A DNA stretch of 50,115 bases, filler included, from Candidatus Zhuqueibacterota bacterium (GTDB lineage: Bacteria; BS750m-G25), in NCBI GenBank assembly GCA_016783505.1. It is 4 parts of 4 records of this genome, joined end to end, with 100 filler letters (N's around TTAATTAATTAA, not from the genome) between each part and the next. Parts side by side here need not be neighbours in the genome. Positions count along the whole stretch, not along the records: positions 1 to 12,796 come from JADHWK010000064.1; positions 12,897 to 25,657 come from JADHWK010000065.1; positions 25,758 to 38,010 come from JADHWK010000066.1; positions 38,111 to 50,115 come from JADHWK010000067.1. One strand, written 5' to 3'. Under the pieces are notes generated by a model. It did no database searches. It saw only the letters and a program-made list of their open reading frames with translations, and was not told where the DNA came from. The translations under genes were made by a program, and so were the position numbers. This document shows positions 3,253-38,712 of this stretch, in pieces (positions within the stretch are counted from its first letter, which is position 1; every line of letters begins with the position of its first letter).

Positions 3253-3455
3253 CCGCAGCCTCTAGCCGTCTATATAAGCAGAGATTTTGAAATTTAGGCC
3301 AAGTTTTTGTAGTAAAATAAAAATCTGATGCTTTAAAATCCGAAATACGATCCCGAACCTTCGGGACGAAACAGCCCAAAGCTGAGTTGCTTTGGTCATC
3401 GGTCAGGGGGGCGAAGCTTCGCTAGATCAAAACGAAACTACTGGGTTAGGGATCT

Positions 3456-3797
3456 TTAAGTTAACCCGGGAAATTTGATACCCCCGGTCAATCCTCCCAG
3501 CAGACCGCCGGTGGCGGAACTGATCTGCTCATTGGCCGCCTCCTGGGCCTTTTCCAGCCCCTGGTTGACGGCGGCCATGACAAGGTCTTCCAGCATCTCC
3601 GTATCCTGGGGGTCTACCACTTCCGGGGCAATGACAAGGCCCACCAGTTCCTGTTTACCATTTACACGCACCGTTACCATCCCCCCGCCAGCGGACCCTT
3701 CTACCACAATGTTCTCCAGTTCTTCCTGGGCCTTAAGAATTTTTTCCTGTATCTTCTGGGCCTGTTTTAAAAGGCCGGTTAAATTACCCTTGGTCAT
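3456..3797 (-). CDS. ybaB: YbaB/EbfC family nucleoid-associated protein
   Basis: LKQAQKIQE...[10 protein letters not shown]...[14 protein letters not shown]; canonical dnaX-ybaB-recR order; AGGAG RBS before ATG 3797. Confidence 0.93.
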
Positions 3798-3812
3798 TTT
3801 CACTCCTGCTTT

Positions 3813-4040
3813 TCATAATTTTACATCCTCGGTATACTGTTCTATTTCAGAAATGGCATCAAGTATATGTTGAAGTCTTGCTTTATCCCCGATATTACTT
3901 CTCATAAATCAATTCTTTTTCTTTGTCAATAATTGACGAATAAACTTTGAAACCGCTTTTTCTTAAAGTAGGTCCACTTTTCTGTTGAGTAAATCTTGTG
4001 ATTCTAATTTCATTTTGACGAATTCTAAACTAATCGGTTT
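3813..4040 (-). pseudogene. Degraded MNT (nucleotidyltransferase) / HEPN (DUF86, HepT-like) toxin-antitoxin pair
   Basis: 3905-3813 reads MRSNIGDKARLQHILDAISEIEQYTEDVKL* (DUF86-like N-terminus). Upstream reads KPISLEFVKMKLESQDLLNRKVDLL*EKAVSKFIR//IDKEKELIYE (MNT C-terminus with a stop and a frameshift). Confidence 0.7.
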
Positions 4041-4142
4041 AGGCTCTTAAAACAGGTTTGTCCTTGAAGTATCTTTTAATTTTTGAAATGTAACTTGTGT
4101 TCAAATTCATTTTAGTTAAATCCATTCTAGGTCATTTAGAAA

Positions 4143-5807
4143 TTACTCAACCAGTTCCCCTTTAAAAATCTCCATAATGTCCCCGATGATGGGCTCTTTC
4201 TGTTTTAAGCCTTCCAGCCATTTCTTTTTATCATCCCCCATCCTCGATTTGGCGGCGGGGCTTTTTACCATCTCCCCTACCACAAACTCAACTGACCATC
4301 TCTCGCCTAAGACCTTTTCCACCGCCCCAGCAATGAGGTCCCGTTCCTTCCTCAGTCGACCGATCTGAAATCCATTCCCCTGGGAAAGGGTAACCGTTAG
4401 TTTGCCTTCCTTTAAGGCAGTGGGCTCCCCCAGGACAAGAAAGACACCCAGGCTTTTTTTCCTTTCCCCCACTTCTGCAACCACCTTATTCCAAGAATCC
4501 TTAACTTTCTCTAATTTTTCCTGATCGTTCGCCCCGATAGAAGGGACCACAACAGCGACCGCCTGTTCCTCCCCCCTTTTAAGCAAACCTTCGGGAGAAG
4601 AAGCTTTTTCTCTTATCTTTTTTTTCGGGGATAAATCCTCTTTCACGCCCATGGAACAGGGCTGATCCTCCCCTGTTTTGAGCCCGACCAAACGCTCGAT
4701 CACCCCTTCAATCTGGACGCTTTCTTCTAGCTTGATCATCTTCAGAAAGGCCAGTTCGAAGGCCAGCCTCCAGTGGGGGTTTCGCCGCAGCCCCACTTCG
4801 GCGTCGGCGACGATCTTAATCAGCCGTAGCAGATCGTTCTCCTGATAAGAGGAACCTTCCTTCAGGTATCTATCTTTGTTCTCCGGGGTTGCTTCCACCA
4901 ACTCGGCGTTTCCCAGGGCTCGGGTCAAAAGCAGGTTGCGGAAATGCTCGCCCAGGCCGATCAAAAATTCCTGGGGGTCGTATCCCTGCCGGACGACCCC
5001 ATCAATCAGGGAGAGACACCCCCCCATATCCCTGGCCCTTATCCGATCGGAAACCTGAAAGAAAAGGTCCTGGGGAATAATCCCCAGCGTGTTGACTACG
5101 TCCTCTAAGCTCACCTTGTTTCCCCCGAAGGATACCATTTGATCCAGCAGTGACTGGGCGTCACGCAGGCTACCGTCGGCCTTGCGGGCCATGATCCGCA
5201 AACATTCATCGTCAACCTCTATCTGCTCCTGGGCGGCGATCTGTCGCAAGTTCTCGATCATGTCATCAATGGAAATGCGGTGAAAGTCAAACCTCTGGCA
5301 GCGGGAGAGGATGGTGGCCGGCACCCGATGGGGCTCGGTGGTAGCGAAGATGAAAACGGTGTGCCCCGGGGGTTCCTCCAGGGTCTTGAGCAGGGCGTTG
5401 AAGGCCTCCTTGGTGAGCATATGCACTTCGTCAATGATGTAAATTTTATACCGCCCCCCTACCGGCGCATACTTGATGTTCTCCCTCAGGTTGCGCACCT
5501 CATCGATCCCTCGGTTGGAAGCCCCATCAATCTCCAACACATCCAGGCTCCGGCCCTCGGTTATCTCTTTGCATCGGGTGCACTGGTTGCACGGTTCCGG
5601 AGTCACCCCCTGGGCACAGTTCAAGGCCTTGGCCAGGATGCGAGCGGTGGTGGTCTTCCCTATCCCCCGGGGCCCGGTGAAGATGTAAGCATGGGAGATG
5701 CGACTGGACTTAATGGCATTTTTAAGGGTCAGGGAGATATGTCCCTGCCCCACGATCTTTTCAAACACCTGAGGCCGCCACTTCCGGGCCATCACTAAAT
5801 AAGACAT
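4143..5807 (-). CDS. dnaX: DNA polymerase III subunit gamma/tau
   Basis: ARKWRPQ, Walker A GPRGIGKT, IIDEVHML, SRC motif, zinc cysteines. Confidence 0.98.
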   Translation of the reverse strand: MSYLVMARKWRPQVFEKIVGQGHISLTLKNAIKSSRISHAYIFTGPRGIGKTTTARILAKALNCAQGVTPEPCNQCTRCKEITEGRSLDVLEIDGASNRGIDEVRNLRENIKYAPVGGRYKIYIIDEVHMLTKEAFNALLKTLEEPPGHTVFIFATTEPHRVPATILSRCQRFDFHRISIDDMIENLRQIAAQEQIEVDDECLRIMARKADGSLRDAQSLLDQMVSFGGNKVSLEDVVNTLGIIPQDLFFQVSDRIRARDMGGCLSLIDGVVRQGYDPQEFLIGLGEHFRNLLLTRALGNAELVEATPENKDRYLKEGSSYQENDLLRLIKIVADAEVGLRRNPHWRLAFELAFLKMIKLEESVQIEGVIERLVGLKTGEDQPCSMGVKEDLSPKKKIREKASSPEGLLKRGEEQAVAVVVPSIGANDQEKLEKVKDSWNKVVAEVGERKKSLGVFLVLGEPTALKEGKLTVTLSQGNGFQIGRLRKERDLIAGAVEKVLGERWSVEFVVGEMVKSPAAKSRMGDDKKKWLEGLKQKEPIIGDIMEIFKGELVE

Positions 5808-5980
5808 GTTACGACCTATGTAAAATGATCAAAATTTATAAATCACAAGCTCCAATTCCCAAATTACAAACAAATCCTATCCCGAAGATTGGGGAACCAA
5901 ATGTTCAAAACCAACATCGTTTTGATCATCCATACGGATGATCCGTAGGAGGCTACGCTCCCAGGGGAATTTGGTGCTTC

Positions 5981-6039
5981 GGTCAGGTTAGTCAGGTCCG
6001 TCAGGCGCCGGACTGATGCCTAACTGACGCCCGACTGAT
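5981..6039. repeat. ~57-bp dispersed repeat with an inverted copy at 36074-36130
   Basis: GTCAGGTTAGTCAGGTCCGTCAGGCGCCGGACTGATGCCTAACTGACGCCCGACTGAT is the near-perfect reverse complement of 36074-36130. Shorter relatives at 15362-15384 and 36838-36852. Confidence 0.8.
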
Positions 6040-6101
6040 GTAATTTGGAATTTACTAACTTTAGTCCCGAACCTTCGGAAAAACAGGATGATGGTCAAAG
6101 G

Positions 6102-6377
6102 ACGGCTGTGCCCTACCTTCGTTCCTGTCTTACCCGACCTCCCCCACGATAGCCAGCTCCCGCCAAGCGTCCCCGGGGCAGCGGCCCAAAACGCCTACCG
6201 CTGCTACCTCCCGGTCCTGACGGGGTTTGGCGCTCCAGTCCGTCCCCGGGACTCGACGATCAACACCGCTTACCGGGAGGAACATCGGGGGACCCGGACC
6301 TCAGAGTAGGCCTTCGACCCTGCTATAGCGGATTGCAGGCTACAGGGCACCGCTAACTCCCCGTCTAGCACAGCCGT
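6102..6377 (-). ncRNA. ffs: Signal recognition particle RNA, long (Alu-containing) form
   Basis: Minus strand has the Alu domain GACGGGGAGTTAGCGGTGCCCTGTAGCCTGCAATCCGC and S-domain helix 8 CCCCGTCAGGACCGGGAGGTAGCAGC. Ends ACGGCTGTGC/GCACAGCCGT pair. Canonical position upstream of dnaX. Confidence 0.95.
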
Positions 6378-6452
6378 GGTGGAGCTGAGGGGATTTGAAC
6401 CCCTGACCTCTAGAGTGCGATTCTAGCGCTCTCCCATCTGAGCTACAGCCCC
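6377..6452 (-). tRNA. tRNA-Ala (anticodon CGC)
   Basis: GGGGCTGTAGCTCAGATGGGAGAGCGCTAGAATCGCACTCTAGAGGTCAGGGGTTCAAATCCCCTCAGCTCCACCA; G3:U70 pair; CCA encoded. Confidence 0.97.
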
Positions 6453-6523
6453 CGCGCGGTGTCTTTAAAACAAAGTTCGAACCTACCTGGTATAAAACAA
6501 TCTTTTAATAAATTCCTATTCTC

Positions 6524-6618
6524 GTATAATGTTCCCATCATAAAAGAAGTCCTGAGGGTAGCGAAGGATTTGGGTAAGTCCCGAAAAATCGGGGCGAACC
6601 TTTTATGCTGTGTTAGGC
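6524..6618 (-). repeat. attC-like site 3 (terminal, degenerate)
   Basis: Minus strand GCCTAAC-A-CAGCATAAAAG...CTTTTATGATG-GGAAC-ATTATAC. The conserved GTT reads ATT, and a CCCCGA-TTTT-TCGGGA palindrome sits in the loop. Confidence 0.75.
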
Positions 6619-6653
6619 GACAGTTTTGCGAGACGAATAACATCTTTTCAATT

Positions 6654-7670
6654 CTATTTTCTTTGACTCTCACTTTCTACACTTTTTACTTTCTCATTAT
6701 TTTTATGGGGTAGGTAGAATTCTCTTATTTCTTTGTCAAACTCAAGTGTATATTTCTCTTTATTGTAAAATAACGGAAAAGCATAAACTATCTGAGCCCT
6801 TGATGCATTGTTATTTTCCTCAAAAAATAAATATATCCCAACTGTCTGCATTTTTGTTCCGAGTGGTGCGATTGAGACCATAGAATCTTTGTATTTCTCA
6901 TCACGATACCATCTATTGAGCAAATCCTTTGTGCAAGCAGGATCCAGTGCTGAAACTTCTTCTACAACAGTATTAGGATGTTCCAAGATAGAACGGTTTG
7001 CTGAGCGTGATGGTAAATCAGCGCCGTGATAAGTAGGGGGATTGCCAATAACAGCTACTGTCAAATCGGGTTCAACATATTTCCAAATAGCATACGCCCG
7101 CTCACCCTCGTAACCAAGCAAAAGAATCAAGATATTTCTGTGAAGTTCTACACAGTCGAGATTGCCAAAATAAGGTAAATAAGTTATGTCTTTTATTCCC
7201 CAGGTTAAATTTTGTCTGACCATGTAGTATCCAGGAGTGTATAAAAGCCTTATCTTCGCATTCGGATAATTGGAACGCAGAAATCGAAGTAATAATAATA
7301 AATATTGTTTTGTAAAAGTTGAAATATCAACAGTAATTCGTTCTAATGAAGGATTTTTATGAGCAAGATCATGTAAGAATCGGGTAAATTTGGAAGAATC
7401 ATATTTATTGAAATACACAGGTTCTATTTCATGTGAAGGACTTTCTAAATAGGGTTTGAGTATTTCTTTTAATCTTAGTTGATGCTTATTTTTTAAGTTA
7501 TCTTCACCATAATACCTTACTAAAAGCATGTTGCGTGCCTTATATTCACTCTTTTTCAACCTAGCACTTACATTCAAACATCTTGGCTCAAAACTAACAC
7601 TCGCAATAAACAAATCGTCAGACTTTGAACTTTCGATGGGTCTAACTGTGCTTATCGGTATAACGCTCAT
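6654..7670 (-). CDS. Uncharacterised cassette protein, two Rossmann/CARF-like alpha-beta domains
   Basis: 338 aa with conserved-looking motifs SFEPRC, VDISTFTK, LGYEGER, IAPLGTK and QIVYAFP. Start overlaps the upstream stop (ATGA). AT-rich. Fold call is inference. Confidence 0.6.
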   Translation of the reverse strand: MSVIPISTVRPIESSKSDDLFIASVSFEPRCLNVSARLKKSEYKARNMLLVRYYGEDNLKNKHQLRLKEILKPYLESPSHEIEPVYFNKYDSSKFTRFLHDLAHKNPSLERITVDISTFTKQYLLLLLRFLRSNYPNAKIRLLYTPGYYMVRQNLTWGIKDITYLPYFGNLDCVELHRNILILLLGYEGERAYAIWKYVEPDLTVAVIGNPPTYHGADLPSRSANRSILEHPNTVVEEVSALDPACTKDLLNRWYRDEKYKDSMVSIAPLGTKMQTVGIYLFFEENNNASRAQIVYAFPLFYNKEKYTLEFDKEIREFYLPHKNNEKVKSVESESQRK

Positions 7671-8230
7671 TTTCTACTCCCTGATCTAAATTTAACCATA
7701 AAGTCTTCTAACGTATCCTCAATATTTTGTTCGTAAGTGTTTCTACGCCAAGCACAAGGGGAGGCGCTGTTCATTAATACAGGATTATCCCATAAATCAC
7801 CGTCATATGCATATATAACTGAAGACACATCTACAGCTTCAGATAATCCTAATTCTACCACATAATCTACCACTGCCTCTGTGCAATCAATAATCTTGAT
7901 AATGCAACTTTGTAGAGCAAAACACACTTGGCATGTCAAATCGTCCATTGGATAGTCCGACGAGGATATTTCAATTATATCATATTTATCTGATAGTAAA
8001 TTAATTAAAAAATCACATTGTTTCTTGTTTCTTGGTTGAAAAGCTATATATGCTTTCTCTATCCTTTGAGATATTTCGTTTTCATAATCGCAAGAAGATT
8101 TTTCTTTATCGAAAGGACATGACCAATGTTTTTTAAAAAAACTATAACCATGTTGGTGAATCGCATCCCTATACCATTCGTTAAAGGACATATTCTCAAA
8201 TTCAGGAGACGAAGGCTCCCACCTTTTCAC
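7667..8230 (-). CDS. C-terminal part of the frameshifted ATPase fusion (nucleoside deoxyribosyltransferase-like domains)
   Basis: This frame stays open upstream to the A10 run at 8369-8378, adding KRISTGVLFEIGLSLGYK. A second repeat reads IIDCTEAVVDYVVELGLSEA. Confidence 0.55.
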   Translation of the reverse strand: MKRWEPSSPEFENMSFNEWYRDAIHQHGYSFFKKHWSCPFDKEKSSCDYENEISQRIEKAYIAFQPRNKKQCDFLINLLSDKYDIIEISSSDYPMDDLTCQVCFALQSCIIKIIDCTEAVVDYVVELGLSEAVDVSSVIYAYDGDLWDNPVLMNSASPCAWRRNTYEQNIEDTLEDFMVKFRSGSRK

Positions 8231-8312
8231 ATCCCAATCTTTGAGGAGCTTAGGTAAACTTTTCTTTTCAAATTCTTCATAGCGGCAATCATTATAGAGA
8301 AAAAATGGACTT

Positions 8313-10304
8313 TTATAACCTAATGAAAGACCTATTTCGAAAAGAACGCCTGTAGAGATGCGTTTCTCTTTTTTTTTTCTGTTTACCTCTGCCTATTTCA
8401 TACTCAATAGGAGTTATATCATGTGTAGTGTAGATAGCTTTCTGGATAATCTTTGGTATATCAATAACAAAACGATGAAGGTCTCGTTTCCATAAATCTC
8501 GTGCTGTTATACATATGTCTTGTTCAACCAATCCAAGCAACCGGGGTCGATCTTTCATATCTTCTTTATGTATATCATTAACTGTACCTTTTAACAAATT
8601 ATTTCTTTCAATAACTTTTTGATCCTTCTTTATTGAAATCGAAATAAAAACAGGATGCTCTGGAAAGATTTTTTTCTGTCCATACTGTGAATCTGCATCT
8701 GGTTGATCGTTTATAGGAGAAAGCATATATTTAATAATTTTATCATTCATCAAAGGAAACTCTCCTTTATTTATCCAGCTAATGCCAAATCGTGGAGCAA
8801 ACAAAGGATTCAGCATACCATGTTCTGGAATATAATCCTTATTAGTATTTATGCTTATTAATTCCTCAGGACTGCATAAAAGAAACCGATTCAAAAAGCC
8901 TTTTCTTAATATTTTTTTAGCTGCCTCACTAATATTAAGAGGTATAGAAAATCTTGAACCTTCAAACGAATATGCTTCTATTCCTTTTTTTTCACAATCT
9001 TTGCCAAAGGAGAGAATAAATGATCTCACCTCACGGAATTCCTCCTCTGTCTCCACATTGACATCTTTATTAAAAGTTAGTGTTGCCAGAGACACAAAAG
9101 CATCAGCTTGTGATTTAGCCGAAATAAAACTAACCTCTTTCGCCTGCTTTTTACTCCGATTGATTTCATTGTCAATCGCTTTTTCACATAGGTTCAAAAA
9201 GGTCAGGATATTTCCTCCAGAAAGTTTAACTAACCTATCGAATCCATAATACAATTTTTGTCTCATATTTCGACTTGTGCCTTTTTCAAAAGTATGAAGT
9301 CGTCTAAGATTTTCACCAGGACTATTACCCTTGTCTATAATATGCTCTATTTTTTGTGGAAATTTTTCAGAAAACACTTCAGCCATATCTATTTCATCTT
9401 TTCCCTGAGGTGATAGTATCTTAATTGTAATTTTTCGAAGAAGTCTTTCATATTGAATATCATAAGGGTCATGGTCTAAAGATAAAATTCCTAAGTCTCT
9501 TGTAAGGTCAATTTTTCTACCCGAAACATCTGAACCAAAAGACTCTGGGAGATATCTTGCGGCGAATTTAACACATAGAGTCTCTTTTAAACTGTGATCT
9601 AAAAAAATATTTAAAACCTTACCTAATCCTTTCCAGTAGTCATATTTATCTACTAAGAGGCATAATCTCTGCTTTCCAATTTTGGTTAATAACTCATCAT
9701 TCATCCGTTCTATCGTAGAAATAAACATGTCCGAGTTAAGGACTCTCATATTTAATTGCTCAGAAAAATCTCTGATTAATCTATTATTTATGATGTTATT
9801 TCTAATTATACTTATTACTTTCTTAAGCCTTTCAATTAGACTATTTACATTAATATTTTCTATATTTAACATATATTCCTCATTGATAATATGAGGGAGA
9901 ATTTCTAACATTTTATAGTCATCATTTAAGAGATTATCCTTTAATTGTATAAGAAGTTCTAAAGCCGTTTTTACACTGAAAAAATGTTCAAAAGTGGCAA
10001 AGTCACTGTAGTCTTGGTATAATCGCACAAGATGTTTCAATTCGGGATTTTTAAAGCCTATATAAACTCCATAGAAAGACAAGTTTTCTAATCTATTTCT
10101 CTTTAATTGAACAGATAAAGAAAGTGCTTTTAAAACAGCAGACTTTCCGCTCCCTGTAGAGCCAATCAAAATACAGTGCCCTGGCTGTAAATATTTTTCA
10201 TAGTCTGGAGGCTCTGCAAATAATGAGTAAATTTCATTAAAATCAATATGTTCAGCGTTTTTCTCTCTCCTAAAAGGATTATCAATCAACTTAAATTTGA
10301 CCAT
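8313..10304 (-). CDS. P-loop ATPase (STAND / ORC-CDC6-like), N-terminal part of a frameshifted ~878-aa fusion
   Basis: N-terminal NPF motif, Walker A ILIGSTGSGKS, Walker B LCLLVDKYD, helical-domain motif LSGGNI. The last ~18 aa after the A10 run look out of frame. Confidence 0.7.
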   Translation of the reverse strand: MVKFKLIDNPFRREKNAEHIDFNEIYSLFAEPPDYEKYLQPGHCILIGSTGSGKSAVLKALSLSVQLKRNRLENLSFYGVYIGFKNPELKHLVRLYQDYSDFATFEHFFSVKTALELLIQLKDNLLNDDYKMLEILPHIINEEYMLNIENINVNSLIERLKKVISIIRNNIINNRLIRDFSEQLNMRVLNSDMFISTIERMNDELLTKIGKQRLCLLVDKYDYWKGLGKVLNIFLDHSLKETLCVKFAARYLPESFGSDVSGRKIDLTRDLGILSLDHDPYDIQYERLLRKITIKILSPQGKDEIDMAEVFSEKFPQKIEHIIDKGNSPGENLRRLHTFEKGTSRNMRQKLYYGFDRLVKLSGGNILTFLNLCEKAIDNEINRSKKQAKEVSFISAKSQADAFVSLATLTFNKDVNVETEEEFREVRSFILSFGKDCEKKGIEAYSFEGSRFSIPLNISEAAKKILRKGFLNRFLLCSPEELISINTNKDYIPEHGMLNPLFAPRFGISWINKGEFPLMNDKIIKYMLSPINDQPDADSQYGQKKIFPEHPVFISISIKKDQKVIERNNLLKGTVNDIHKEDMKDRPRLLGLVEQDICITARDLWKRDLHRFVIDIPKIIQKAIYTTHDITPIEYEIGRGKQKKKRETHLYRRSFRNRSFIRL

Positions 10305-10371
10305 TTCCTATCACCTATTGTTTTTGACTCTTTAATCAATTTTTGCTGGTGCAAAAGTCTCGCAAAATGTC

Positions 10372-10442
10372 GCCTAACGGTACCAGCATATACGACGTTT
10401 TGTGATAGCAAAATGTCCCGAAGCGTATATGCTGTGTTATCT
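10372..10442 (-). repeat. attC-like site 2
   Basis: Minus strand AGATAAC-A-CAGCATATACG...CGTATATGCTG-GTACC-GTTAGGC, with 11-bp perfect arms. Confidence 0.85.
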
Positions 10443-10458
10443 GCCGTTATAATAAATA

Positions 10459-11118: not shown

Positions 11119-11156
11119 TTAATCACCCATTCGTAGAGTTCGTATTAGGTAATGGC

Positions 11157-11294: not shown

Positions 11295-11298
11295 GCCG

Positions 11299-11900: not shown

Positions 11901-12341
11901 TTAAGATTTTCCTCCTCTCTTACGAATGCTCAAACTATCCAGCGGGCTCCTAATTCTTCCAATGCTCTGTTTGCTAACATGGGTATATATTTCGGTTGTC
12001 TTACTACTCTTATGCCCCATCCCGAAATTTCGGGACTGAATATACCGGAGGTCAGTCCCGCTTTCTAATAGGTGTGTCGCAAAACTATGTCTAAGACTGT
12101 GTACCGAAACCTGTTTTTGAGTTCCTGCTATCCGGCATGCTTTTGTGAAAATCTTCTCAACCGTTCGCGATGTTATATGTTTGTCCTTGTTCTGTCCTGG
12201 AAACAACCACTTCTTTGGTCTGTATTCCTTCCAGTATCCCCTTAGAATACCCAATGATCTCTCGGAAAGAATGGTATATCTATCCTTCCTCCCTTTAGTA
12301 TCCCTAATGTGAATAAACATCCTTTTGCTGTCAATATGTTC
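11901..12341 (-). pseudogene. 5'-truncated tyrosine recombinase (integron-integrase-like)
   Basis: [21 protein letters not shown]...[37 protein letters not shown]. Box I Arg and the N-terminal domain are absent. Canonical ELL is replaced by SRNFGM. Confidence 0.85.
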
Positions 12342-12554
12342 TTTTCGGTTCTGGATTGTACATTACGCTCTCTTCCCTTCCATACCGAAAACGGCACCAC
12401 CTTTTCAAAGTACGAATCCCCGCCGTGGACATAGTCGCCCTCCTCTTCAACGAAGCGGTGATCAGCGGTAACAACAACCTTAAATTCCGACCCGACTCGC
12501 CGAACCCAGCATTCATGAGTATTAGAGAAATCCTTTCTACTCTGCCGTCCGCCG

Positions 12555-12791
12555 TCATCCATGAGAATTAATTTCGTACAACTCAGCAGTAAACTTGCCT
12601 GATGGCTTGACTCTTCCATTTAAGATATTCTCTACAATTTTTGCTGATGACAAAGGCATTGATTCTTGCCCACACTCTGGACATACATACATAACCAAGT
12701 CCGAAATAACAATAGGCTCGCCGTTACGAAGGAATATCTTTTCTTCTTTTCTTTCCTCCATTGGGAATGGACAGCCATTTGGACACTGCAT
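12555..12791 (-). CDS. YgiT/MqsA-type zinc-finger protein
   Basis: MQCPNGC...VISDLVMYVCPECGQE pattern, 78 aa; any partner gene would lie beyond the contig end. Confidence 0.7.
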   Translation of the reverse strand: MQCPNGCPFPMEERKEEKIFLRNGEPIVISDLVMYVCPECGQESMPLSSAKIVENILNGRVKPSGKFTAELYEINSHG

Positions 12792-12796: not shown

Positions 12797-12896
12797 NNNN
12801 NNNNNNNNNNNNNNNNNNNNNNNNNNNNNNNNNNNNNNNNTTAATTAATTAANNNNNNNNNNNNNNNNNNNNNNNNNNNNNNNNNNNNNNNNNNNN
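12797..12896. other. Assembly gap / artificial contig linker
   Basis: N-run with embedded TTAATTAATTAA (stop codons in all six frames). Confidence 0.98.
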
Positions 12897-14115: not shown

Positions 14116-14280
14116 GTATCTGTTTAGCTAAGTGTAATCTTGTCATTGCGATCCCGAAGTTTCGGGAGAAGCAATCTGTATCATTATAAATAAAAAGATT
14201 GCTTCGTCATCCCGAATACTCGGGATTCCTCGCAATGACAGTAAAAATTTTATTTTTTCTTCAAACGGCTAAACAGTTAC
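14116..14280. mobile_element. MITE with GTAACTGTTYAGC-type terminal inverted repeats and 8-bp target duplication; REP-like doublet inside
   Basis: CAATTTAC|GTATCTGTTTAGC...GGCTAAACAGTTAC|CAATTTAC. Internal TGTCATTGCGA...GAAGCAATCT / AGATTGCTTC...TCGCAATGACA inverted pair. Confidence 0.8.
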
Positions 14281-15339: not shown

Positions 15340-15520
15340 GTAACAGTTCACCACGGAATCTCATCAGTCGGGCGCCTGACTGACGGAACTACACAGAAGT
15401 GTTCCGCTATCAGCAATCAGTCATCAGATATCAGCAATAAGTAATCAACAACAGCCATCTTTGTTCCCGAACCATCGGGAACTTGTCCCGACACCTCGGG
15501 ATTAGTGGCTTAACTGTTAC
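15340..15520. mobile_element. MITE, same terminal repeat family, 8-bp target duplication
   Basis: GATTGAAT|GTAACAGTTCACCAC...GTGGCTTAACTGTTAC|GATTGAAT. Confidence 0.8.
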
Positions 15521-21322: not shown

Positions 21323-21399
21323 ATGTGTGCCCGGCATGACACGACCACTTGGGGGTAAGAGTCCTCTACTGGCCCGGCAGGGGGAATCCGCCGCAGGCG

Positions 21400-21551
21400 G
21401 ATGAAGAATCTCGTTCTTTATTGAGCCCCTCTTCCAAATGAGATTCTTCATTCCACTACGCTTCATTCAGAATGACAAAAACGCAGGTTGTCATCCTGAC
21501 CCGAATCCCTGACCCTGAACGAAATGAAGGGAAAGGAGCAATGAAGAATCT
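21400..21551. repeat. REP-like palindromic cluster
   Basis: ATGAAGAATCTC...GAGATTCTTCAT, CAGAATGACA...TGTCATCCTG and a second ATGAAGAATCT. Confidence 0.6.
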
Positions 21552-22005
21552 GAGAAGCCTTCCCCCGACCCGTCCCGATAATTCGGGATAAATAGGGATC
21601 AGACCCGCCCTGAGTTCATTACCCAAAACTAAGGCCATTGGTGAATATTATCATCCACCGGATTTAAGGGGACATAAAAAACCCCGATTTCAATCGGGGT
21701 AACTAGACGTCTCGGAAATTCTAAAAACTTATTGAAAACATTAGAGTTATTCAAGCATTTCTGGAAGGACATCAGAATATCAGTGAATTAGTAGGAAGGT
21801 TACCAGGATATCAGAATACCAGATCGTTTTCTCGGGGCTATGTTTATCCCATTTACTTGTCCGTCTGGTTTTCTGGCTTTTCTGATACTCTTCCCATCCC
21901 GAACCTTCGGGACTGATAAACTGATATACTTATTCCCACCGTCCCATTGTTCCAGTTGGGGCGTAGCCCCTAAGTTCATGAATCAAAGATGTTTTGGGTC
22001 ATGGG

Positions 22006-23682
22006 TTATCTGATAGTACCCTGGTAGATGGTGGTGAGCTGTTTTTCCCTGACTAAGGGGTTGCTGTAGTCCGGCAGGATCATGGGGGCGATCCTATCGG
22101 TTATAATGCCCGCTTCCTCCATCTCCTTATGATATCGTCTCACATGATCCAGGGTTAGTTCTCCGTCTTCTGGGGTTTCTTTTGCATAGATGGCCGCATT
22201 CTTGCCGGCAATCTGACCGAAGACGGTGACACCGAGCAGGGAGTTGCCCATCAGTCTGTTTTCACCGTGAACCCCGCCGGAGACCTCGCCCGCCACAAAC
22301 AAGCCGGGTATGGTTGTCTCGCATTTAGGATTGATCTCCAGACCACCATTCTGGTAATGAAGGGTGGGATAGATCAACATGGGCGCTTTGGAGATATCAA
22401 TTTCATATCTTTTGAAGAGGATAAATTTGCCCGGAAAATCTTTTTTCACTGTCCCTTCACCGTGCAACAAATCTATCATCGGCGAATCCAGCCAGACCCC
22501 AACCTTGCCGGTGGGGGTGGGGACCCCCTTCTCCACATCAGGGAGGCACTCCCGAATTATGCTGGCTGCTTCCACATCCCGGGGCTCCCTTTCGTAGACG
22601 AACTGTTCCCCATCTATGTTCACCAGGTTGGCTCCGGCACCCCTGAATTTTTCCGTGATCAGGAGTCCCTCTGCCTGTTCGGGGAATACCGCTCCGGTGG
22701 GATGGTACTGAACCGTATGCAGAAAGCACAGTTTCACCCCGGCTCGATAGCCTATAACAACCCCATCCCCGGTGGCTCCATAATGATTGGTGGTCATATA
22801 ATTTTGTATGTGCAGCCTGCCGGAACCCCCGGTGGCAAAGATGACCGCTCTCGCCTTAATTACCAGGTATTCTTCTGTTTCCAGGTTATAAGCAACGACG
22901 CCGGCGCAGTGGCCCTTTTCATTCAGAACCAACTCTATCACGGGGCAGAATTCCAACACCTTGATGTCCTCGGCTCGATTTCTGGCTTCGTCCCGAAGAG
23001 TGCGCATAATCTCCGCACCGGTAATGTCGGCCGCGTAGTGCATTCGCTTTCGGCTGGTTCCCCCCCCATGCAAGGCCTTTAATCTTCCATCAGTGAACTT
23101 GGTGAACATGCATCCCAGGCTCTCCAGCCAGGCAATCGTCCTGGGGGCCTCGGTTACCAGGGTGTAGACCAACTCCGGGTCGTTGACGAAATGACCACCT
23201 CCCATTATATCTAAATAATGGTAATAGGGAGAATCCTTTTCCTGCTTGATGGCCGCCTGAATGCCCCCTTCGGCCATCATCGTATTGGCATCACCATGCC
23301 TGAGCTTGGTAACGATCATTACCTTGGCCCCCTGTTCCTGGGCCCGAAGGGCAGCGGCTGTCCCCGCCCCTCCCCCCCCAACGATCAAAATATCGGTCTG
23401 GTAGGTCACTTCGGAGAGATCCAGTTTGTCCGGGTCAACCCGACTCTTGGCTTCCAGCAGGTCAACGAACTCGTTACTTATGGCATAACCCTTGTTAGGA
23501 CCTACCCTGATCTCCCTTCGATTTCCCTTGATAAAATCCGGATGGTGCTTTTTCAATATTTTTTCCCTTTCGGCGAGGGGGAGGGCGGGAAATTCTTCCC
23601 CCCTTTTCTTCCTTTCCAGCCGGGCCGGTCTTGTCTTTTCAACCTTCTTGATCAGTTCTTTTAAATCCGGCGTATAAGGCAT
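22006..23682 (-). CDS. Soluble fumarate reductase/succinate dehydrogenase-like flavoprotein (TfrA/NadB-related)
   Basis: GGGGAG FAD motif, ATGG, QYHPT, TEKFRG, HYQNGG and HGENRLMGNSL active-site motifs; AGGAGG RBS before ATG 23682. Confidence 0.85.
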   Translation of the reverse strand: MPYTPDLKELIKKVEKTRPARLERKKRGEEFPALPLAEREKILKKHHPDFIKGNRREIRVGPNKGYAISNEFVDLLEAKSRVDPDKLDLSEVTYQTDILIVGGGGAGTAAALRAQEQGAKVMIVTKLRHGDANTMMAEGGIQAAIKQEKDSPYYHYLDIMGGGHFVNDPELVYTLVTEAPRTIAWLESLGCMFTKFTDGRLKALHGGGTSRKRMHYAADITGAEIMRTLRDEARNRAEDIKVLEFCPVIELVLNEKGHCAGVVAYNLETEEYLVIKARAVIFATGGSGRLHIQNYMTTNHYGATGDGVVIGYRAGVKLCFLHTVQYHPTGAVFPEQAEGLLITEKFRGAGANLVNIDGEQFVYEREPRDVEAASIIRECLPDVEKGVPTPTGKVGVWLDSPMIDLLHGEGTVKKDFPGKFILFKRYEIDISKAPMLIYPTLHYQNGGLEINPKCETTIPGLFVAGEVSGGVHGENRLMGNSLLGVTVFGQIAGKNAAIYAKETPEDGELTLDHVRRYHKEMEEAGIITDRIAPMILPDYSNPLVREKQLTTIYQGTIR

Positions 23683-25657: not shown

Positions 25658-25757
25658 NNNNNNNNNNNNNNNNNNNNNNNNNNNNNNNNNNNNNNNNNNN
25701 NTTAATTAATTAANNNNNNNNNNNNNNNNNNNNNNNNNNNNNNNNNNNNNNNNNNNN
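25658..25757. other. Assembly gap / artificial contig linker
   Basis: N-run with TTAATTAATTAA. Confidence 0.98.
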
Positions 25758-27716: not shown

Positions 27717-27932
27717 AGATCAAAGTTAAAATTAGCAATTAGCAATGCAAAATTAGTCCCGATAAATTCGGGACAAAATGAGCAAGCCAAAATGGAGAAT
27801 AAAGAAAAAAGATTTTGAAATTGCTAATTGCTAATTGCTTCAGCCATAGGCTGATCCCTGCCCACGGCAGGCGGGCGCCTCAGGCGGAAATTTTACATTT
27901 TACATTGAGCCTTTTCATAGTAGTCAGCTTAA

Positions 27933-30895: not shown

Positions 30896-30920
30896 TTAAC
30901 GTATTGGGAAGGATAAAACA

Positions 30921-31124: not shown

Positions 31125-31186
31125 AGATAAAATACCGGAAAAAGTTTCTAAAAGAACTCTCAAAAATCCCCCCCCGAATAAGAGAA
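31121..31186 (+). pseudogene. Truncated RelE/ParE-like toxin remnant
   Basis: TTG start overlapping the antitoxin stop; MKIKYRKKFLKELSKIPPRIRE, after which similarity is lost. Confidence 0.5.
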
Positions 31187-31283
31187 GATGATGGATATAC
31201 TGGAACTTCTGGGTGTTGGTTTCGGGATAATAACCGCTTTAATTACTATTTTCAAGTTTATTTAGCTATAAGGAGATATTGCG

Positions 31284-32357: not shown

Positions 32358-32470
32358 ACCAGATAGTTACAAAGAGTTCCCCGAAATTTCGGGGCCTAAA
32401 TTTCAAAAATTATTTGTGACAGTTTACCACTACCTGATATTGAAAAATAGGGGATTTTAGAGGAGGATAA

Positions 32471-33469
<999 letters not shown>

Positions 33470-33471
33470 AC

Positions 33472-33877
33472 ATGAAAAAGTCCGAGCTAAAAAATTACGG
33501 ATAACTATCATCTTCGATTGATACTGCAGTTCGGGTCAGCAGTTAGCCGGATGAGTAACCGTGAAAGCGACTTGGATATTGCCGTCTTAGTGGATGGGTC
33601 TGAAGACGTATCAAAGGATAAATATCAATGGTATTTGGGCGGTGAATTCATAAGGCTTTTTATGAGGGATGACGTGGATGTGGTTATTATTAATACAGCC
33701 AATTCACTGTTGCGATATGAAATAGCGATGAATTGTAAAATTATTTTTGAGAAAGGCGATGCTTTTGCCAAATTTGCAAGCCGTGCCATGAAGGACTATG
33801 AGGATGATAAAAAGTTCTACGATCAGTTCTACAAGGATGCCATACACAGTCTGTTTGATTTTGAGGGTGTACAATGA
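33472..33877 (+). pseudogene. Orphan MntA-type nucleotidyltransferase antitoxin, apparently frameshifted near the start
   Basis: FGS...SDLDIAV motif, DVDVVIIN, LLRYEI. ATG 33472 (MKKSELK) is out of frame with the body at the A6 run 33489-33494. TTG 33518 is an alternative start. Confidence 0.7.
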
Positions 33878-35076
33878 TTAATCGCCCAATGGGGGTTGAC
33901 CATTTGAATTTTAAAGGCAAAAGGGTTTTAATTAGGGTGGACTTCAACGTTCCCTTAGATGAAGGACTTAACATTACCGATGACACTAGGATCGTGGAAG
34001 CCTTGCCGACGATCAGGAAGGTTTTGGCCGATGGGGGGAAGGCGATTTTGATGTCCCATCTGGGGCGGCCCAAGGGACAGGTTAAACCTGAGTTGAGTTT
34101 AGTACCGGTGGCCAAACGGTTATCGGAGATGTTGGATAAACAGGTTATGCTGGCTGAGGATTGTATTGGGGCTAAGGTGGAGAGTCTCATAAAGGGGCTG
34201 AAAGCCGGGGATTGTTTATTACTTGAGAACCTGAGGTTTCATCCTGAAGAGGAGAAAAACGCCCCCGATTTTTCCAGACAACTGGCCTCGCTGGGTGACA
34301 TCTACATCAACGATGCCTTCGGCTCCGCCCATCGATCCCACGCTTCCACAGTGGGGGTTACCCGATATTATGATCAGTGTGCTGCCGGCTATTTGATGCA
34401 GAAGGAAATAGCCTACCTGGGAAAAGCTTTATCCAACCCCGAACGTCCCTTTGTGGCCATCCTGGGAGGGGCGAAGGTTTCGGGAAAGATTGATGTTATC
34501 AAAAACCTACTGGATAAAGTGGATTATCTGCTCATCGGGGGGGGGATGGCGTATACCTTTTTCCGGGCCATGGGGCTTCAGACCGGGGAATCCTTAGTCG
34601 AGGAGGATAAGATCGGGCTGGCGGCTGAAATTCTGGGAGGAATTAAGGATCAGCGCATAGATTTCATCCTTCCCGACGATTGTGTAGTGGCCGAAGATTT
34701 CAGTAATGAGGCATCGTATAAAACGGTCCCCAGGGGAGAAATACCACCGGAGTGGCAGGGATTGGATGTGGGTCCTAAGACGGTGGAACGCTTCGCATTG
34801 ATTATTGGTGAGGCAAGGACAGTTTTGTGGAATGGTCCTCTGGGTGTCTTTGAGATGCCAAATTTCGCTATGGGAACCAGAAGGATCGCCCAGGCCCTGG
34901 CCAATGTCACTGACCAGGGGGCGGTGACTATCATTGGTGGGGGGGATACGGCGGCGGCGGTTAAGCAATTCGGTTTCGGGGACCGTATAAGTCATATTTC
35001 AACCGGCGGTGGGGCCTCCTTGGAATTTTTGGAGGGAAAGAAACTTCCCGGGATTGAAGCGTTAACGGATGCCTAA
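33874..35076 (+). CDS. pgk: Phosphoglycerate kinase
   Basis: RVDFNVP, SHLGRPKG, LLENLRF, GGAKVSGKI, STGGGASLEFLEG. Confidence 0.98.
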   Translation: MINRPMGVDHLNFKGKRVLIRVDFNVPLDEGLNITDDTRIVEALPTIRKVLADGGKAILMSHLGRPKGQVKPELSLVPVAKRLSEMLDKQVMLAEDCIGAKVESLIKGLKAGDCLLLENLRFHPEEEKNAPDFSRQLASLGDIYINDAFGSAHRSHASTVGVTRYYDQCAAGYLMQKEIAYLGKALSNPERPFVAILGGAKVSGKIDVIKNLLDKVDYLLIGGGMAYTFFRAMGLQTGESLVEEDKIGLAAEILGGIKDQRIDFILPDDCVVAEDFSNEASYKTVPRGEIPPEWQGLDVGPKTVERFALIIGEARTVLWNGPLGVFEMPNFAMGTRRIAQALANVTDQGAVTIIGGGDTAAAVKQFGFGDRISHISTGGGASLEFLEGKKLPGIEALTDA

Positions 35077-35086
35077 GAGGAGGAGA

Positions 35087-35857
35087 ATGAAGCGGAAATT
35101 AATCATCGCCGGCAACTGGAAGATGAACAAGACAGCCCTAGAGGCCGAAGGTTTGGTGAAAGATTTGGTCTCAAACATTGGTAGTGTTCAAAAAACCGAT
35201 GTGGTTATCTGTCCCCCTTTTACAGCGCTGGAAACCGTGGGGCGACTTATTGATGGTACCCCGATTGCCTTGGGGGCCCAGAACATGCATTGGGAAGAAA
35301 AAGGAGCCTTCACCGGGGAAATCTCCGCTGATATGTTGAAGGCGCTGGGGTGCCGGTACGTCATCTTAGGCCATTCAGAGAGGAGACAGTATTTCGGAGA
35401 GACCGATGAAGGGGTCAATAAAAAATTGCGGGCCGCTTTGGAGGCAGGATTACAACCTATTGTTTGCGTGGGTGAGACCTTAAAAGAGAGGGAAGCTAGG
35501 GTCACAGAAAAAGTTTTAAGTGATCAACTAAAAGGAGTGTTCAGGAATTTTGCCGTCGAGGAGCTTGGGGATGTGATATTAGCCTATGAGCCCGTGTGGG
35601 CCATCGGCACCGGCCGGACGGCCTCACCCCAACAGGCGGCCCAGGTCCATCGCTTTATCCGGGGGATATTGGGCGATCTCTTTACCCCCCACTGGGCGCA
35701 GGGCTTAAGGATTCAATACGGGGGAAGCGTAAAACCGGAAAACATCCGGAATTTATTGGCTGAGGTTAACATAGACGGGGCGTTGGTGGGCGGGGCCAGT
35801 CTGGATAATGGGCCATTTGCCCGGATTGTGGCAGTGGCAGAGGAAATGAGCCGATAG
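35087..35857 (+). CDS. tpiA: Triosephosphate isomerase
   Basis: AGNWKMN, GHSERR, AYEPVWAIGTG, YGGSV; AGGAGG RBS before ATG 35087. Confidence 0.98.
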   Translation: MKRKLIIAGNWKMNKTALEAEGLVKDLVSNIGSVQKTDVVICPPFTALETVGRLIDGTPIALGAQNMHWEEKGAFTGEISADMLKALGCRYVILGHSERRQYFGETDEGVNKKLRAALEAGLQPIVCVGETLKEREARVTEKVLSDQLKGVFRNFAVEELGDVILAYEPVWAIGTGRTASPQQAAQVHRFIRGILGDLFTPHWAQGLRIQYGGSVKPENIRNLLAEVNIDGALVGGASLDNGPFARIVAVAEEMSR

Positions 35858-36244
35858 TGAACTTAGCCGTTCCAAGATCGTTTTCCCCTGGCCGGGCAGG
35901 TAAGACCCTTCGGGCCGAAAGGATCGGGCAGTTGAAATAATGGAATAATGGAATGATGGGGTAATAAGTATATCAAATGATCAGGGATCAGTGGGAAGAA
36001 TATTAGAAGAACATGATAAGATAAACGAGTTAAACATCGCATGGAGAAAATTATCTGGTATTCTGATACTCTGATCAGTCCGGCGTCAGTTAGGCATCCG
36101 TCCGGCGCCTGACGGACCTGACTAACCTGAAGGATATTCTGATTTACTTTAAATTATATGAGTCTTGTCGCTATGAGTTTTTTAAAAAGTAGAAGCCTAA
36201 TATTTTCAATGATGTTAATAGTTACATACCACGGAGGATAGAAG

Positions 36245-36613
36245 ATGGGATTCTTAATCTTTATACACATTTTGGTTGCTTTTTTTCTGGTTATTGTTAT
36301 TTTACTCCAGTCAAGCAAAGGGGGGGGGTTGGCCGGGGCCTTTGGGGGAATGGGTGGGGGAGCGGTCTTTGGGGGTCGGGGAGTGGCAACCTTCCTCAGT
36401 AAAGTGACCACCGTTTTGGCGACGATTTTGCTTATTAACTGTATCATCATAGGGGTTATCGCCTCCCGGCGCGGGGAACGGGAAAGTTTGATCCAACAGG
36501 CGGCTCAGAGAGCCCGGGTAGAATCACCGGTGGCTAATCTGCCGGCCGTTCCAGGGACGGTGTCCCCGCCCGCTGAAGAAAAGCCGGCTCCCACCGGGGA
36601 GGAAGGGGAATAA
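36245..36613 (+). CDS. secG: Preprotein translocase subunit SecG
   Basis: ILLQSSKGGGLAGAFGG...FLSKVT; canonical tpiA-secG-tRNA-Leu order. Confidence 0.95.
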   Translation: MGFLIFIHILVAFFLVIVILLQSSKGGGLAGAFGGMGGGAVFGGRGVATFLSKVTTVLATILLINCIIIGVIASRRGERESLIQQAAQRARVESPVANLPAVPGTVSPPAEEKPAPTGEEGE

Positions 36614-36852
36614 ACATATTAGTTCTTCCCGAAATTTAATGGTTAATTAGGAATGGAGGTTTGTTGCAGAGCGGGATATATTGGAAAATTCGAAGCACGA
36701 TTCCGAACCTTCGGGACGAAACAAATCCGAATGACCAAAAGCCAAAATTAGAAGAAATATAATTTATAAACTTAAGAAAATAGATATTAGTTGAAGCTTC
36801 GGACTCATATAGCGTAAAGGTAACTAACGTTTTGAACATCGGTCAGGCGCCC

Positions 36853-37024
36853 GGGCCTGTTGCAGAACTATCGCATAGGAATAAATTCCTATGCTAACTC
36901 TAAGAAAGTATGTTGAAACATACTGTTATTAGTCCCGAAGTTTCGGGACTTTCGTTGAGATAGCGTGATAATTTATTATCACGCAAAGAGGAAACCAGCG
37001 ATTTCAGAGTTGTGCCACAGGCCC
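36853..37024. mobile_element. MITE with 17-bp terminal inverted repeats, inserted into another dispersed repeat
   Basis: GGGCCTGTTGCAGAACT...AGTTGTGCCACAGGCCC (15/17 match). Flanks rejoin to CATCGGTCAGGCGCCC-GACTGATG, compare 15362-15384. Confidence 0.65.
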
Positions 37025-37092
37025 TCCCGACTGATGGGAAGGGATCATAATTGACAATTTTCAATTGACAGTTGTCAATTTTTCCTAAGATT

Positions 37093-37176
37093 GCCGAAGT
37101 GGTGGAACGGGTAGACACGCCATCTTGAGGGGGTGGTGCCCTTTTGGGTGTGCCGGTTCGAGTCCGGCCTTCGGCA
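37093..37176 (+). tRNA. tRNA-Leu (anticodon GAG)
   Basis: GCCGAAG acceptor stem, CCATC-TTGAGGG-GGTGG anticodon arm, long variable arm, GGTTCGAGTCC. CCA is not encoded (CTA follows). Confidence 0.95.
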
Positions 37177-37286
37177 CTATTCGCCATATTGTTTCCCCCT
37201 GGGAGCGTAACCTCCTACGGACCGGGCATGCAAGACCCTTTGGGCCGACGGATTTAGATAGCGATGGTAAAAAAGAGGGTTTGAGA

Positions 37287-37658
37287 ATGGAAAAAAGAAG
37301 GATTTTAGTCGTTGACGATGAGATGGAAGTTTGTATCTTAGTTAAGGAATTTTTGGAAGAAAGAGGCTATCAAGTGGCGGTGGCCAATCGGGGTAAAGAT
37401 GCCGTAGAGGGGATGAAATCTTTTCGACCCCACGTGGTCCTGTTGGACATAAGGATGCCCGGTATGAGCGGTATGGAAGTGCTGGATCAGATCCGGGAGA
37501 TTGATAAGGAAGTGGGGGTAATTATGGTTACCGCTGTCAAAGATGAGAGAATCGGAAGGGAGGCCTTAAAGAAGGGGGCCACGGATTATATCGTCAAACC
37601 TATTGATCTTGATTATTTGGAGACCAGTGTACTGACAAAGATTACTCAAACTTGGTGA
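37287..37658 (+). CDS. Single-domain response regulator
   Basis: ILVVDDE, LLDIRMPGMSG, MVTA, VKP. Confidence 0.9.
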   Translation: MEKRRILVVDDEMEVCILVKEFLEERGYQVAVANRGKDAVEGMKSFRPHVVLLDIRMPGMSGMEVLDQIREIDKEVGVIMVTAVKDERIGREALKKGATDYIVKPIDLDYLETSVLTKITQTW

Positions 37659-37669
37659 TGGGAGTTTCA

Positions 37670-38010
37670 ATGAACCCTGGAAAAATATTGGTGGTGGATG
37701 ACGAGATAGAGATTACGGAGTTCGTGGGCGAGTTTCTGAAGGAGAAAGGCTACCACGTAATCACTGCTAATGACGGCTTTACGGCCTTAGAGAAGGTAAA
37801 AAGTGAAAAACCGAACTTAGTGCTTTTAGACATCAAGATGCCGAAGATGGATGGTCTAGAGACCTTGAAGAGGATTCGGGAGATCGACCTCGGGGTGGGG
37901 GTGGTTATGGTGACGGTGATAAAGGACGAGGAAATCGGCCGCCGGGCAATGGAATTGGGGGCCTTTGATTTTATCAACAAGCCCATTGATTTAACCCAGC
38001 TCGAAAATAC
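37670..38010 (+). CDS. Response regulator receiver, partial; paralogue of the upstream gene
   Basis: ILVVDDE, LLDIKMPKMDG, NKPID; runs into the gap. Confidence 0.88.
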
Positions 38011-38110
38011 NNNNNNNNNNNNNNNNNNNNNNNNNNNNNNNNNNNNNNNNNNNNTTAATTAATTAANNNNNNNNNNNNNNNNNNNNNNNNNNNNNNNNNN
38101 NNNNNNNNNN
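38011..38110. other. Assembly gap / artificial contig linker
   Basis: N-run with TTAATTAATTAA. Confidence 0.98.
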
Positions 38111-38394
38111 CGCCAGGCGGATACCTGAACCGTAAAACCGGTTCCCCGGGAATAAGTGGGAACTTCGGTGTATGGCTTCACTTCTTCAACCGTTTTCAAG
38201 GTTTCTTCAGGAACAATCGCCGGGGGGAACCCTTCTTCCTCCCCCACCACACCCGTATCCACGGGGGCAACCTCCTCGACCGGGGCTTTCTCTTCGGGCA
38301 CCACCTCCCCTTCCGGCTCCTTCTCCTTCTTCCCGCAGCCGACCAGCACCAGCAGGACCGTCGCAATCAGAACAGGCAAAACCATCTTCTTCAT
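38111..38394 (-). CDS. SPOR-domain lipoprotein, partial
   Basis: Lipobox LVG-C, acidic Pro-rich linker, GFTVQVSAW (SPOR first strand); GGAGGG RBS. Confidence 0.7.
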
Positions 38395-38491
38395 TGTTTA
38401 CCCCTCCCTTAATCAAAGCTTTAATTACTAAGCATTTCTAAAGATTTCTAAGCAAATTAGTTTGACAAGGTCTAAAAAGTTTAATTTTTTC

Positions 38492-38712
38492 GTAACAGTT
38501 CAGCCACTCCCGAAATATCGGGATCACTTCATGACGAGTCACCAAGGTACAAAGATAAACGAATATGATAATCTTTAAATTGACTCTATGTCGTTTCCCC
38601 CCTAAATCCCCCCTAGCCCCCCTTTATTAAAGGGGGGATTTCAAAGGGGGACTTTGGTAAAGGCCAAAAAGGACAAAAGATACAGAAATAAAATTTAGTA
38701 ATGAACTGCTAC
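38492..38712. mobile_element. Third, eroded copy of the GTAAC(A/T)GTTCA MITE family
   Basis: GTAACAGTTCAGCCAC...GTAATGAACTGCTAC; no intact target duplication. Confidence 0.55.

Follow-up and report, generated by a model that had tools for sequence, protein, structure and literature searches.

A dispersed 16-nt hairpin in a Zhuqueibacterota genome and its probable origin in GIY-YIG nuclease cassettes lodged at tRNA genes

The palindrome 5′-TCCCGA-N4-TCGGGA-3′ (the 16-mer) is scattered over the draft genome of the Candidatus Zhuqueibacterota bacterium BS750m-G25 (G000; 2.51 Mb, 89 contigs, 60% complete), where it avoids genes, occupies sites whose empty forms are found in sister repeats, and borders small genes for GIY-YIG proteins at tRNA genes, an association that recurs in genomes of several phyla. 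We propose that the 16-mer may well be a free-standing version of the hairpin found at the borders of these tRNA-lodged GIY-YIG cassettes, multiplied as a minimal non-autonomous mobile unit. The system is best filed as a set of GIY-YIG cassettes built like an Ssn nuclease with its NTS/SRM hairpins, together with a solo hairpin that is derived from them and has burst to more than 200 copies. The stretch of DNA that was analysed (the window, 50,115 nt) consists of small contigs strung together (C82, C83, C86, C88 and one short fragment), with N spacers at 12797-12896, 25658-25757 and 38011-38110; since these are separate contigs joined by N's, distances between features lying on different pieces are meaningless. 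Throughout, Cn:position is a contig coordinate in G000, G-numbers denote comparison genomes, and L-numbers denote loci extracted from reference or comparison genomes.

The window holds 10 exact copies of the motif, whereas 100 dinucleotide shuffles gave 0.01 on average and never reached 10; when up to one mismatch was allowed, 15 matches were found where the shuffles gave an expectation of 0.16. The preliminary description of this DNA had called for such a count and had listed 16 sites, all of which exist: 10 are exact, four carry one mismatch and two are variants. Genome-wide, 226 exact copies were counted. All of these have a loop of 4 nt, and the same arms separated by any other loop length from 0 to 12 nt occur 10 times or fewer for each length. 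The motif is by a wide margin the commonest perfect 6-bp hairpin of G000, the runner-up being CCCCGA/N4 with 52 copies, and folding of the 16-mer as single-stranded DNA gave a mean of -5.2 kcal/mol, versus -0.6 kcal/mol for shuffled 16-mers. Both flanks are unique in 53 copies, one flank is repeated in 92, and both are repeated in 81. Genes are clearly avoided, so that only 20 of the 226 copies lie in open frames of at least 200 aa, versus 77% of random positions. Inspection of the 12 longest in-frame cases placed 10 of them at the extreme 5′ start of a stop-to-stop frame, ahead of likely start codons, and left two that are truly protein-internal. Every window copy but the one at 12020 is situated outside open reading frames, in line with the earlier view that the copies are essentially confined to non-coding or dead DNA.

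A GIY-YIG domain search of G000 returned six matches, namely four strong small frames, one more weak match that is also a small frame, and one other. The four strong frames encode single-domain proteins of 84-96 aa, each above the PF01541 cut-off; Y5, Y16 and E62 are invariant across them, and the closest solved structures are the UPF0213 proteins 1zg2 (9.6e-12) and 1ywl (3.9e-10). Exact copies of the motif lie within 300 nt on both sides of three of the four genes (those on contigs C5, C81 and C85), an arrangement found for only 0.11% of random 260-nt intervals. Next to each of the four genes are an intact tRNA gene and partial copies of its tRNA, and in the three motif-flanked cassettes the 16-mer stands in for a tRNA hairpin within the partial copies. 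The T arm is replaced in the tRNA-Pro cassette; in the tRNA-Asp and tRNA-Asn cassettes the replaced part comprises the variable loop together with the 3′ half of the anticodon stem. The fourth gene (C81b; C81:27000-27400, L003) has an intact tRNA on one side and, on the other, a tRNA copy in which another hairpin, GTCCGAC-N7-GTCGGAC (present once in G000), takes the place of the anticodon arm. A motif copy was found within 300 nt of 14 of the 35 tRNA genes, versus 5% of random intervals. Thus, among the HUH, GIY-YIG and reverse-transcriptase genes that the preliminary description had proposed to look for beside the motif, GIY-YIG is the class that co-occurs with it.

The link between nuclease gene, tRNA and hairpin was also observed across phyla. 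Reference genomes were scanned with the 85-aa C5 protein of G000 as the query, and 80 loci were kept; a tRNA is present within 400 nt in 51 of them, on the same strand in all but one. At 55-85% identity the exact motif was present in 25 of 28 loci and a tRNA-Asp adjoined in 23 of 28, these close loci coming from Bacteroidota, Ignavibacteria, one Aminicenantia genome and one Roizmanbacteria genome. Among the 52 more distant loci the exact motif was found in two, and two others carry the Neisseria-like core TCCCGC...GCGGGA. The close relatives are laid out as in G000, i.e., a tRNA-Asp copy with the hairpin after the anticodon loop is followed by the nuclease gene and then by the intact tRNA. Other lineages have the hairpin in place of the T loop of a 3′ tRNA fragment. 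Ten genomes with a close relative of the nuclease hold 127, 96, 35, 19, 17, 16, 14, 4, 4 and 1 copies of the motif. Another 60 genomes, whose kinship to G000 is at domain level only, hold 0-8 copies, and 43 of the 60 hold none. In Sediminibacterium (L019:1900-2650) the whole cassette, that is the hairpin-bearing tRNA-Asp copy and the nuclease gene, is present twice in tandem ahead of the intact tRNA.

The copies and empty sites of the window are listed below; copies of the motif are given without a strand.

3351..3366: exact copy with the loop ACCT, between open reading frames.
5862..5866, minus strand: empty site AATTA (TAATT on the minus strand); the sister repeats at C1:193930 and C50:4309 hold the 16-mer.
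5880..5895: copy with one arm mismatch, TCCCGAAGATTGGGGA; its sister at C27:14992 is exact.
6065..6080: one-mismatch copy located just after the SRP RNA gene (6106-6373, minus strand), on its 3′ side.
6579..6594: one-mismatch copy in which the outer pair is T..G; tRNA-Ala is about 130 nt away.
11901..12320, minus strand: C-terminal catalytic frame of a tyrosine recombinase (PF00589, E 3.9e-25).
12020..12035: exact copy within the recombinase frame.
14152..14167: exact copy in one arm of a long imperfect palindrome (tgtcattgcga ... tcgcaatgaca).
14210..14225: exact copy in the opposite arm of the palindrome that holds the 14152 copy, preceded by cgtca.
15465..15480: exact copy, first of a pair 5 nt apart.
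15486..15501: exact copy, second of this pair 5 nt apart.
21573..21588: exact copy, retained in the diverged strain of public run X5, a single contig of which spans 21357-22072.
21715..21721, plus strand: empty site GAAATTC, bounded by ACGTCTCG and TAAAAACT.
21897..21912: exact copy.
25255: one-mismatch match that was absent from the earlier list and is indistinguishable from chance.
27757..27773: 17-nt variant with a 5-nt loop, TCCCGATAAATTCGGGA.
32379..32394: member of the CCCCGA-N4-TCGGGG subfamily.
36701..36716: one-mismatch copy (TTCCGA...).
36933..36948: exact copy in a repeat family whose member at C18:6300 has TCCATTTTAATGGA instead; it lies upstream of tRNA-Leu, at a distance of about 145 nt.
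38508..38523: exact copy, between open reading frames.

The 60-nt flanks of each copy were blasted against G000, and the sites at which both flanks recurred close together were aligned. In 15 repeat families the flanks align to the base and the middles differ, with the 16-mer in one form and another sequence of 0-36 nt in the other. The empty form has 0 nt in the pair C43:1021 vs C1:3753, 5 nt at window 5862-5866 (TAATT), 7 nt in another case (GCCTCGC), 8 nt at the tip of a REP hairpin (TCTTTAGA) and 11 nt in a further one (CCAAGTCTTGG), and empty forms of 14 nt and 36 nt were found as well. An additional family has the structure ACGTCTCG-X-TAAGAAT, in which X is TCCCGAATATTCGGGA in five copies and a 7-mer (GAAATTC, GAATTTC or GAACTTC) in six, including the one at window 21715-21721. 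No target duplication was observed in the 15 filled/empty repeat families, nor at the recombinase.

The recombinase frame offers a filled site that can be compared with another genome. Its homologue in G061 (about 72% DNA identity), the closest that was found, reads YIQEPLGH at the insertion site of the window and does not carry SRNFGM. The 16 nt of the motif stand here against 7 nt in G061 (GAACCGT, coding strand) and lengthen the gene by a net 9 nt without a frameshift, as had been predicted from the window, where about 7 nt appeared to be replaced by 16 nt with no duplication. The window gene is probably dead, because its N-terminal part is a separate frame (12242-12619), different from the C-terminal one. 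The recombinase is split into N- and C-terminal frames both in G000 (11901-12619) and in G061 (L096:682-1773), and in G061 the two are nearly adjacent, the first stopping three bases ahead of the start codon of the second; the occurrence of the split in both genomes may be more than decay. In-frame copies were also seen in two apparently intact genes, at C25:3157 (a PpiD/SurA-like chaperone) and at C19:25630 (an NTP_transf_5 protein), and both read IPK(L/F)RD. The PpiD-like proteins of G061 and G000 share just 25-32% identity, though both genomes have mobile genes in common.

The sites occupied by the hairpin obey a simple junction rule. The base at -1 is A or G and the base at +17 is T or C in 189 of the 226 copies of G000 (AT 67, AC 48, GT 43, GC 31), and all 17 of the G061 copies examined obey it too. 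The two bases vary independently, and are thus not an extension of the stem; a purine and a pyrimidine are likewise seen at these positions in the empty sites, which makes them a property of the target. Copies are also nested, so that 13 of the 226 lie in the loop of another copy, where they replace the loop and one stem base, and fewer than one such case is estimated by chance. The hairpin itself varies in a restricted manner. Base 7 of the motif and its partner depend on the genome: they are mostly A-T in G000, but G-C in G061 and the majority of cassettes. In the 10 copies of one REP lineage, four variants of the two central bases were seen, against a single change in 120 arm positions; such constant arms with a variable centre are compatible with self-correction of the palindrome as well as with selection by an arm-reading protein. 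For the form with a C-G outer pair (CCCCGA-N4-TCGGGG), 52 matched double changes were counted vs 13 single-arm changes, which indicates that whole hairpins were propagated. This sister subfamily (window 32379-32394 and 51 other places in G000) looks as if the two forms had been propagated separately. Inheritance of the loop from the target was also considered, and was not adopted because most filled/empty pairs show nothing like it; hints of it were seen in a few pairs (AGGT kept in a tRNA-Asn copy, AGGT vs TGGT in a tRNA-Asp copy, and GAAATTC vs GAATATTC).

A mechanism can be proposed for the spread of the 16-mer from the cassettes. The hairpin would be written into DNA with a purine on its 5′ side and a pyrimidine on its 3′ side, replacing 0-36 nt without target duplication, and its targets would include the loops of its own copies, the tips of REP hairpins and the arms of broken tRNA copies. 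One or more GIY-YIG proteins would recognise the folded hairpin on single-stranded DNA and cut nearby, and host replication or repair would then copy the hairpin into the gap. The arms would be faithfully copied or corrected in the process, and the central two bases would be free to vary. The preliminary description had taken the palindrome for a very small mobile or templated element that overwrites existing sequence and spreads in trans, and the base-precise filled and empty sites, the gene avoidance and the co-occurrence with GIY-YIG genes support this view at the level of sequence comparison. A stronger version, termed hairpin grafting, is offered only tentatively. Here the 16-nt hairpin would be the mobile element itself, the smallest known; a single-strand-specific GIY-YIG nuclease would open the purine/pyrimidine site, a repair polymerase would write both arms, and the same element family would colonise tRNA genes across bacterial phyla. 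If true, hairpin grafting would amount to transposition without a transposase, terminal repeats or target duplication.

The cassettes have a described counterpart in Neisseria meningitidis. SsnA is a 94-aa GIY-YIG protein that cuts single-stranded DNA beside the NTS hairpin, an activity that requires Y6, Y17 and E64; its gene is flanked by NTS copies, and the wide Ssn family to which it belongs has NTS-related motifs, termed SRMs, and dRS3 among its hairpin repeats (Chenal et al., Nat Commun 2025, PMC11893778). Compared with the account given there, the system of G000 likewise has a single-domain GIY-YIG protein of about 90 aa, a gene with hairpins on both sides, and a hairpin dispersed in hundreds of copies, most of them intergenic. 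The core is built in nearly the same way, TCCCGC-N4-GCGGGA in NTS vs TCCCGA-N4-TCGGGA in G000, the sole difference in the published core being the loop-closing pair, and the Y5/Y16/E62 of the G000 proteins match the Y6/Y17/E64 reported for SsnA by position number only. In the tRNA-Asp cassettes (L002:1423-2034; L012, L013) the hairpin follows the anticodon loop CTGTCA, which yields the arrangement GTCA-hairpin-C and resembles the NTS flanks as published (CGTCA before, C after). The SRM upstream element may have descended from the tRNA-Asp anticodon loop. In the main text of Chenal et al. (PMC11893778) mobility is treated by analogy with insertion sequences only, without filled or empty sites, and tRNA is absent from that text.

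Supplementary Data 4 of the same paper (PMC11893778) lists a cd10448 homologue in Sunxiuqinia dokdonensis and gives SRM enrichment as absent there (0.82-fold). We found 17 motif copies in this genome, and a nuclease 64% identical to the C5 protein; its GIY-YIG matches were seven small frames and one of 613 aa, a small one being the C5 relative. Membership of the G000 nucleases in the cd10448 family is indirectly favoured by that table taken together with the S. dokdonensis gene list, and surveys based on a pattern would undercount Ssn/SRM-like systems. A literature search returned no paper on bacterial GIY-YIG genes located at tRNA genes with hairpins, and the search for SsnA/NTS literature from 2025 onward yielded a single item, a preprint in which SsnA loci serve as a benchmark.

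The nearest behavioural parallel to the 16-mer is found in the small dispersed repeats (SDR) of heterocyst-forming cyanobacteria, which are reportedly 21-27 nt long (Elhai et al., Genome Res 2008). These too are very small dispersed repeats that are regarded as mobile and are precisely inserted within other repeats, but they belong to a different phylum, are larger, and are not known to have an associated enzyme. SDR5, for example, is stated to insert between bases three and four of HIP1 (PMC4390886).

Several results weigh against the derivation of the 16-mer from Ssn-like cassettes. The published degenerate SRM pattern has 23 matches in G000 (8-14 in five shuffles), and none of the 23 contains the motif. 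The oriented flank that SsnA is reported to need, GTCA upstream, is present as such or as its complement at 4 of the 226 copies of G000; in the copies of the tRNA-Asp cassettes this flank does occur, being the anticodon loop of the tRNA. Three nuclease paralogues with a mutual identity of only 33-45% have one hairpin in common. Three of the 60 control genomes (G003, G049 and G060) combine the best nuclease matches with the highest motif counts, but this agreement is weak because none of their listed motif copies shares a contig with a nuclease match. When 25-nt flanks were folded, flank-to-flank pairing amounted to 4.7 pairs at real copies vs 4.2 at 600 matched non-coding purine-pyrimidine sites into which the motif had been inserted in silico (P = 0.17). 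A general preference for hairpin tips, which shows no significant excess in this comparison, was dropped, and targeting of tips is therefore claimed solely for the loops of the 16-mer itself, the REP tips and the tRNA arms. Finally, no clean case of filled-versus-empty polymorphism among strains was found in the contigs assembled from four public runs, and in these four runs the contigs end at hairpin copies or repeats. Contigs of runs X5 and X7 have six extra bases within window 21722-21735 (G after 21725 and TCGGG after 21730), and these provide a motif half-site that is absent from the window.

Spread by a host process alone, i.e., by template switching or palindrome-driven fork repair, would turn the GIY-YIG cassettes into mere carriers or neighbours of the hairpin, for which it could be, e.g., a recognition or immunity site. 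We regard this as unlikely. Perfect arms with a free centre, as in the REP lineage described above, are what self-templated correction of a palindrome is expected to produce, and the sharing of one hairpin by three different nuclease paralogues, as well as the copies that lie away from the nuclease genes in G003, G049 and G060, also agree with such a process. However, it leaves unexplained why one specific 12-nt arm sequence is common to the cassettes of several phyla, and why high copy numbers are confined to genomes with a close relative of the nuclease.

The intergenic location of the 16-mer and the stability of its hairpin could also be those of a functional site selected by the host (a terminator, an RNA-stability hairpin or a protein operator) that arose repeatedly by selection and not by movement, and its 7-2-7 palindrome is of the kind bound by dimeric proteins. 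This explanation appears improbable to us. The hairpin lacks a following run of T (9-52% T over positions +17 to +24), so that it is not a terminator. The copies appear by length change and not by substitution, and this, together with the excess of matched double over single-arm changes given above, makes a convergent origin by point mutation unlikely. Copies are found inside repeats, broken tRNA copies, the dead recombinase and their own loops; the fixed promoter-relative position that an operator would be expected to have, as the preliminary description had pointed out, was not apparent from these locations, the promoters being unmapped.

A third candidate is a RAYT-type (IS200/IS605-like, HUH) transposase, with the 16-mer being the REP sequence that it spreads. 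Known REP/REPIN-RAYT systems do resemble the present one in having short intergenic palindromes that are tied to, and flank, a single-copy enzyme gene, as described in PMC3116915; they differ in that the enzyme is HUH and not GIY-YIG, and in that REPs are described there as longer imperfect palindromes that spread as doublets (PMC3116915). Three Y1 transposase genes of G000 exceed the Pfam cut-off, and the one on C80 has four motif copies within 1.5 kb, on both sides. Against this, the other two Y1 genes have no motif copy within 1.5 kb, and the 53 copies noted above are in DNA unique on both sides. Moreover, at C80 the motif is the tip of a longer hairpin of a separate REP family (GAACC..A - tip - T..GGTTC; C80:1960-2760 and 12 other places) that flanks the RAYT-like Y1 gene, and this REP is also known without the motif: its tips hold the 16-mer, TCTAAAGA or TCTTTAGA, and one TCTAAAGA copy adjoins the C80 Y1 gene. 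The 16-mer is a passenger that invades the tips of this REP/RAYT family, and its spread by RAYT is very improbable. Pasting of short cDNA hairpins by a reverse transcriptase, for which a 2026 preprint reporting UG27 systems that make such hairpins could be invoked, is scarcely credible; no RVT_1 match was found in G000, although this genome is only 60% complete.

An origin of the 16-mer in the tRNA-lodged cassettes would bear on questions beyond this genome. Chenal et al. (PMC11893778) showed what Ssn nucleases cut, and their text leaves open the route to hundreds of copies and the role of these enzymes outside Neisseria. G000 supplies base-precise sites before and after insertion, a junction rule, self-nesting and a link with tRNA-lodged cassettes across phyla, so that the spread of the repeat becomes testable with defined substrates. 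The 16-mer also gives rise to small in-frame insertions, such as the three codons added to the recombinase, and to broken tRNA copies, both of which annotation pipelines may misread.

Two further features of the surroundings of the copies were noted. At window 6106-6452 the SRP RNA gene (152 bits) adjoins tRNA-Ala, both on the minus strand, and motif copies bracket the pair (6065 and 6579). Tandem heptamers (CAATCAG and its relatives; window 23742, C75:2086, C36:25458 and others) differ in number between sister repeats and between strains, and the 16-mer occurs inserted between units of these CAATCAG-type heptamers.

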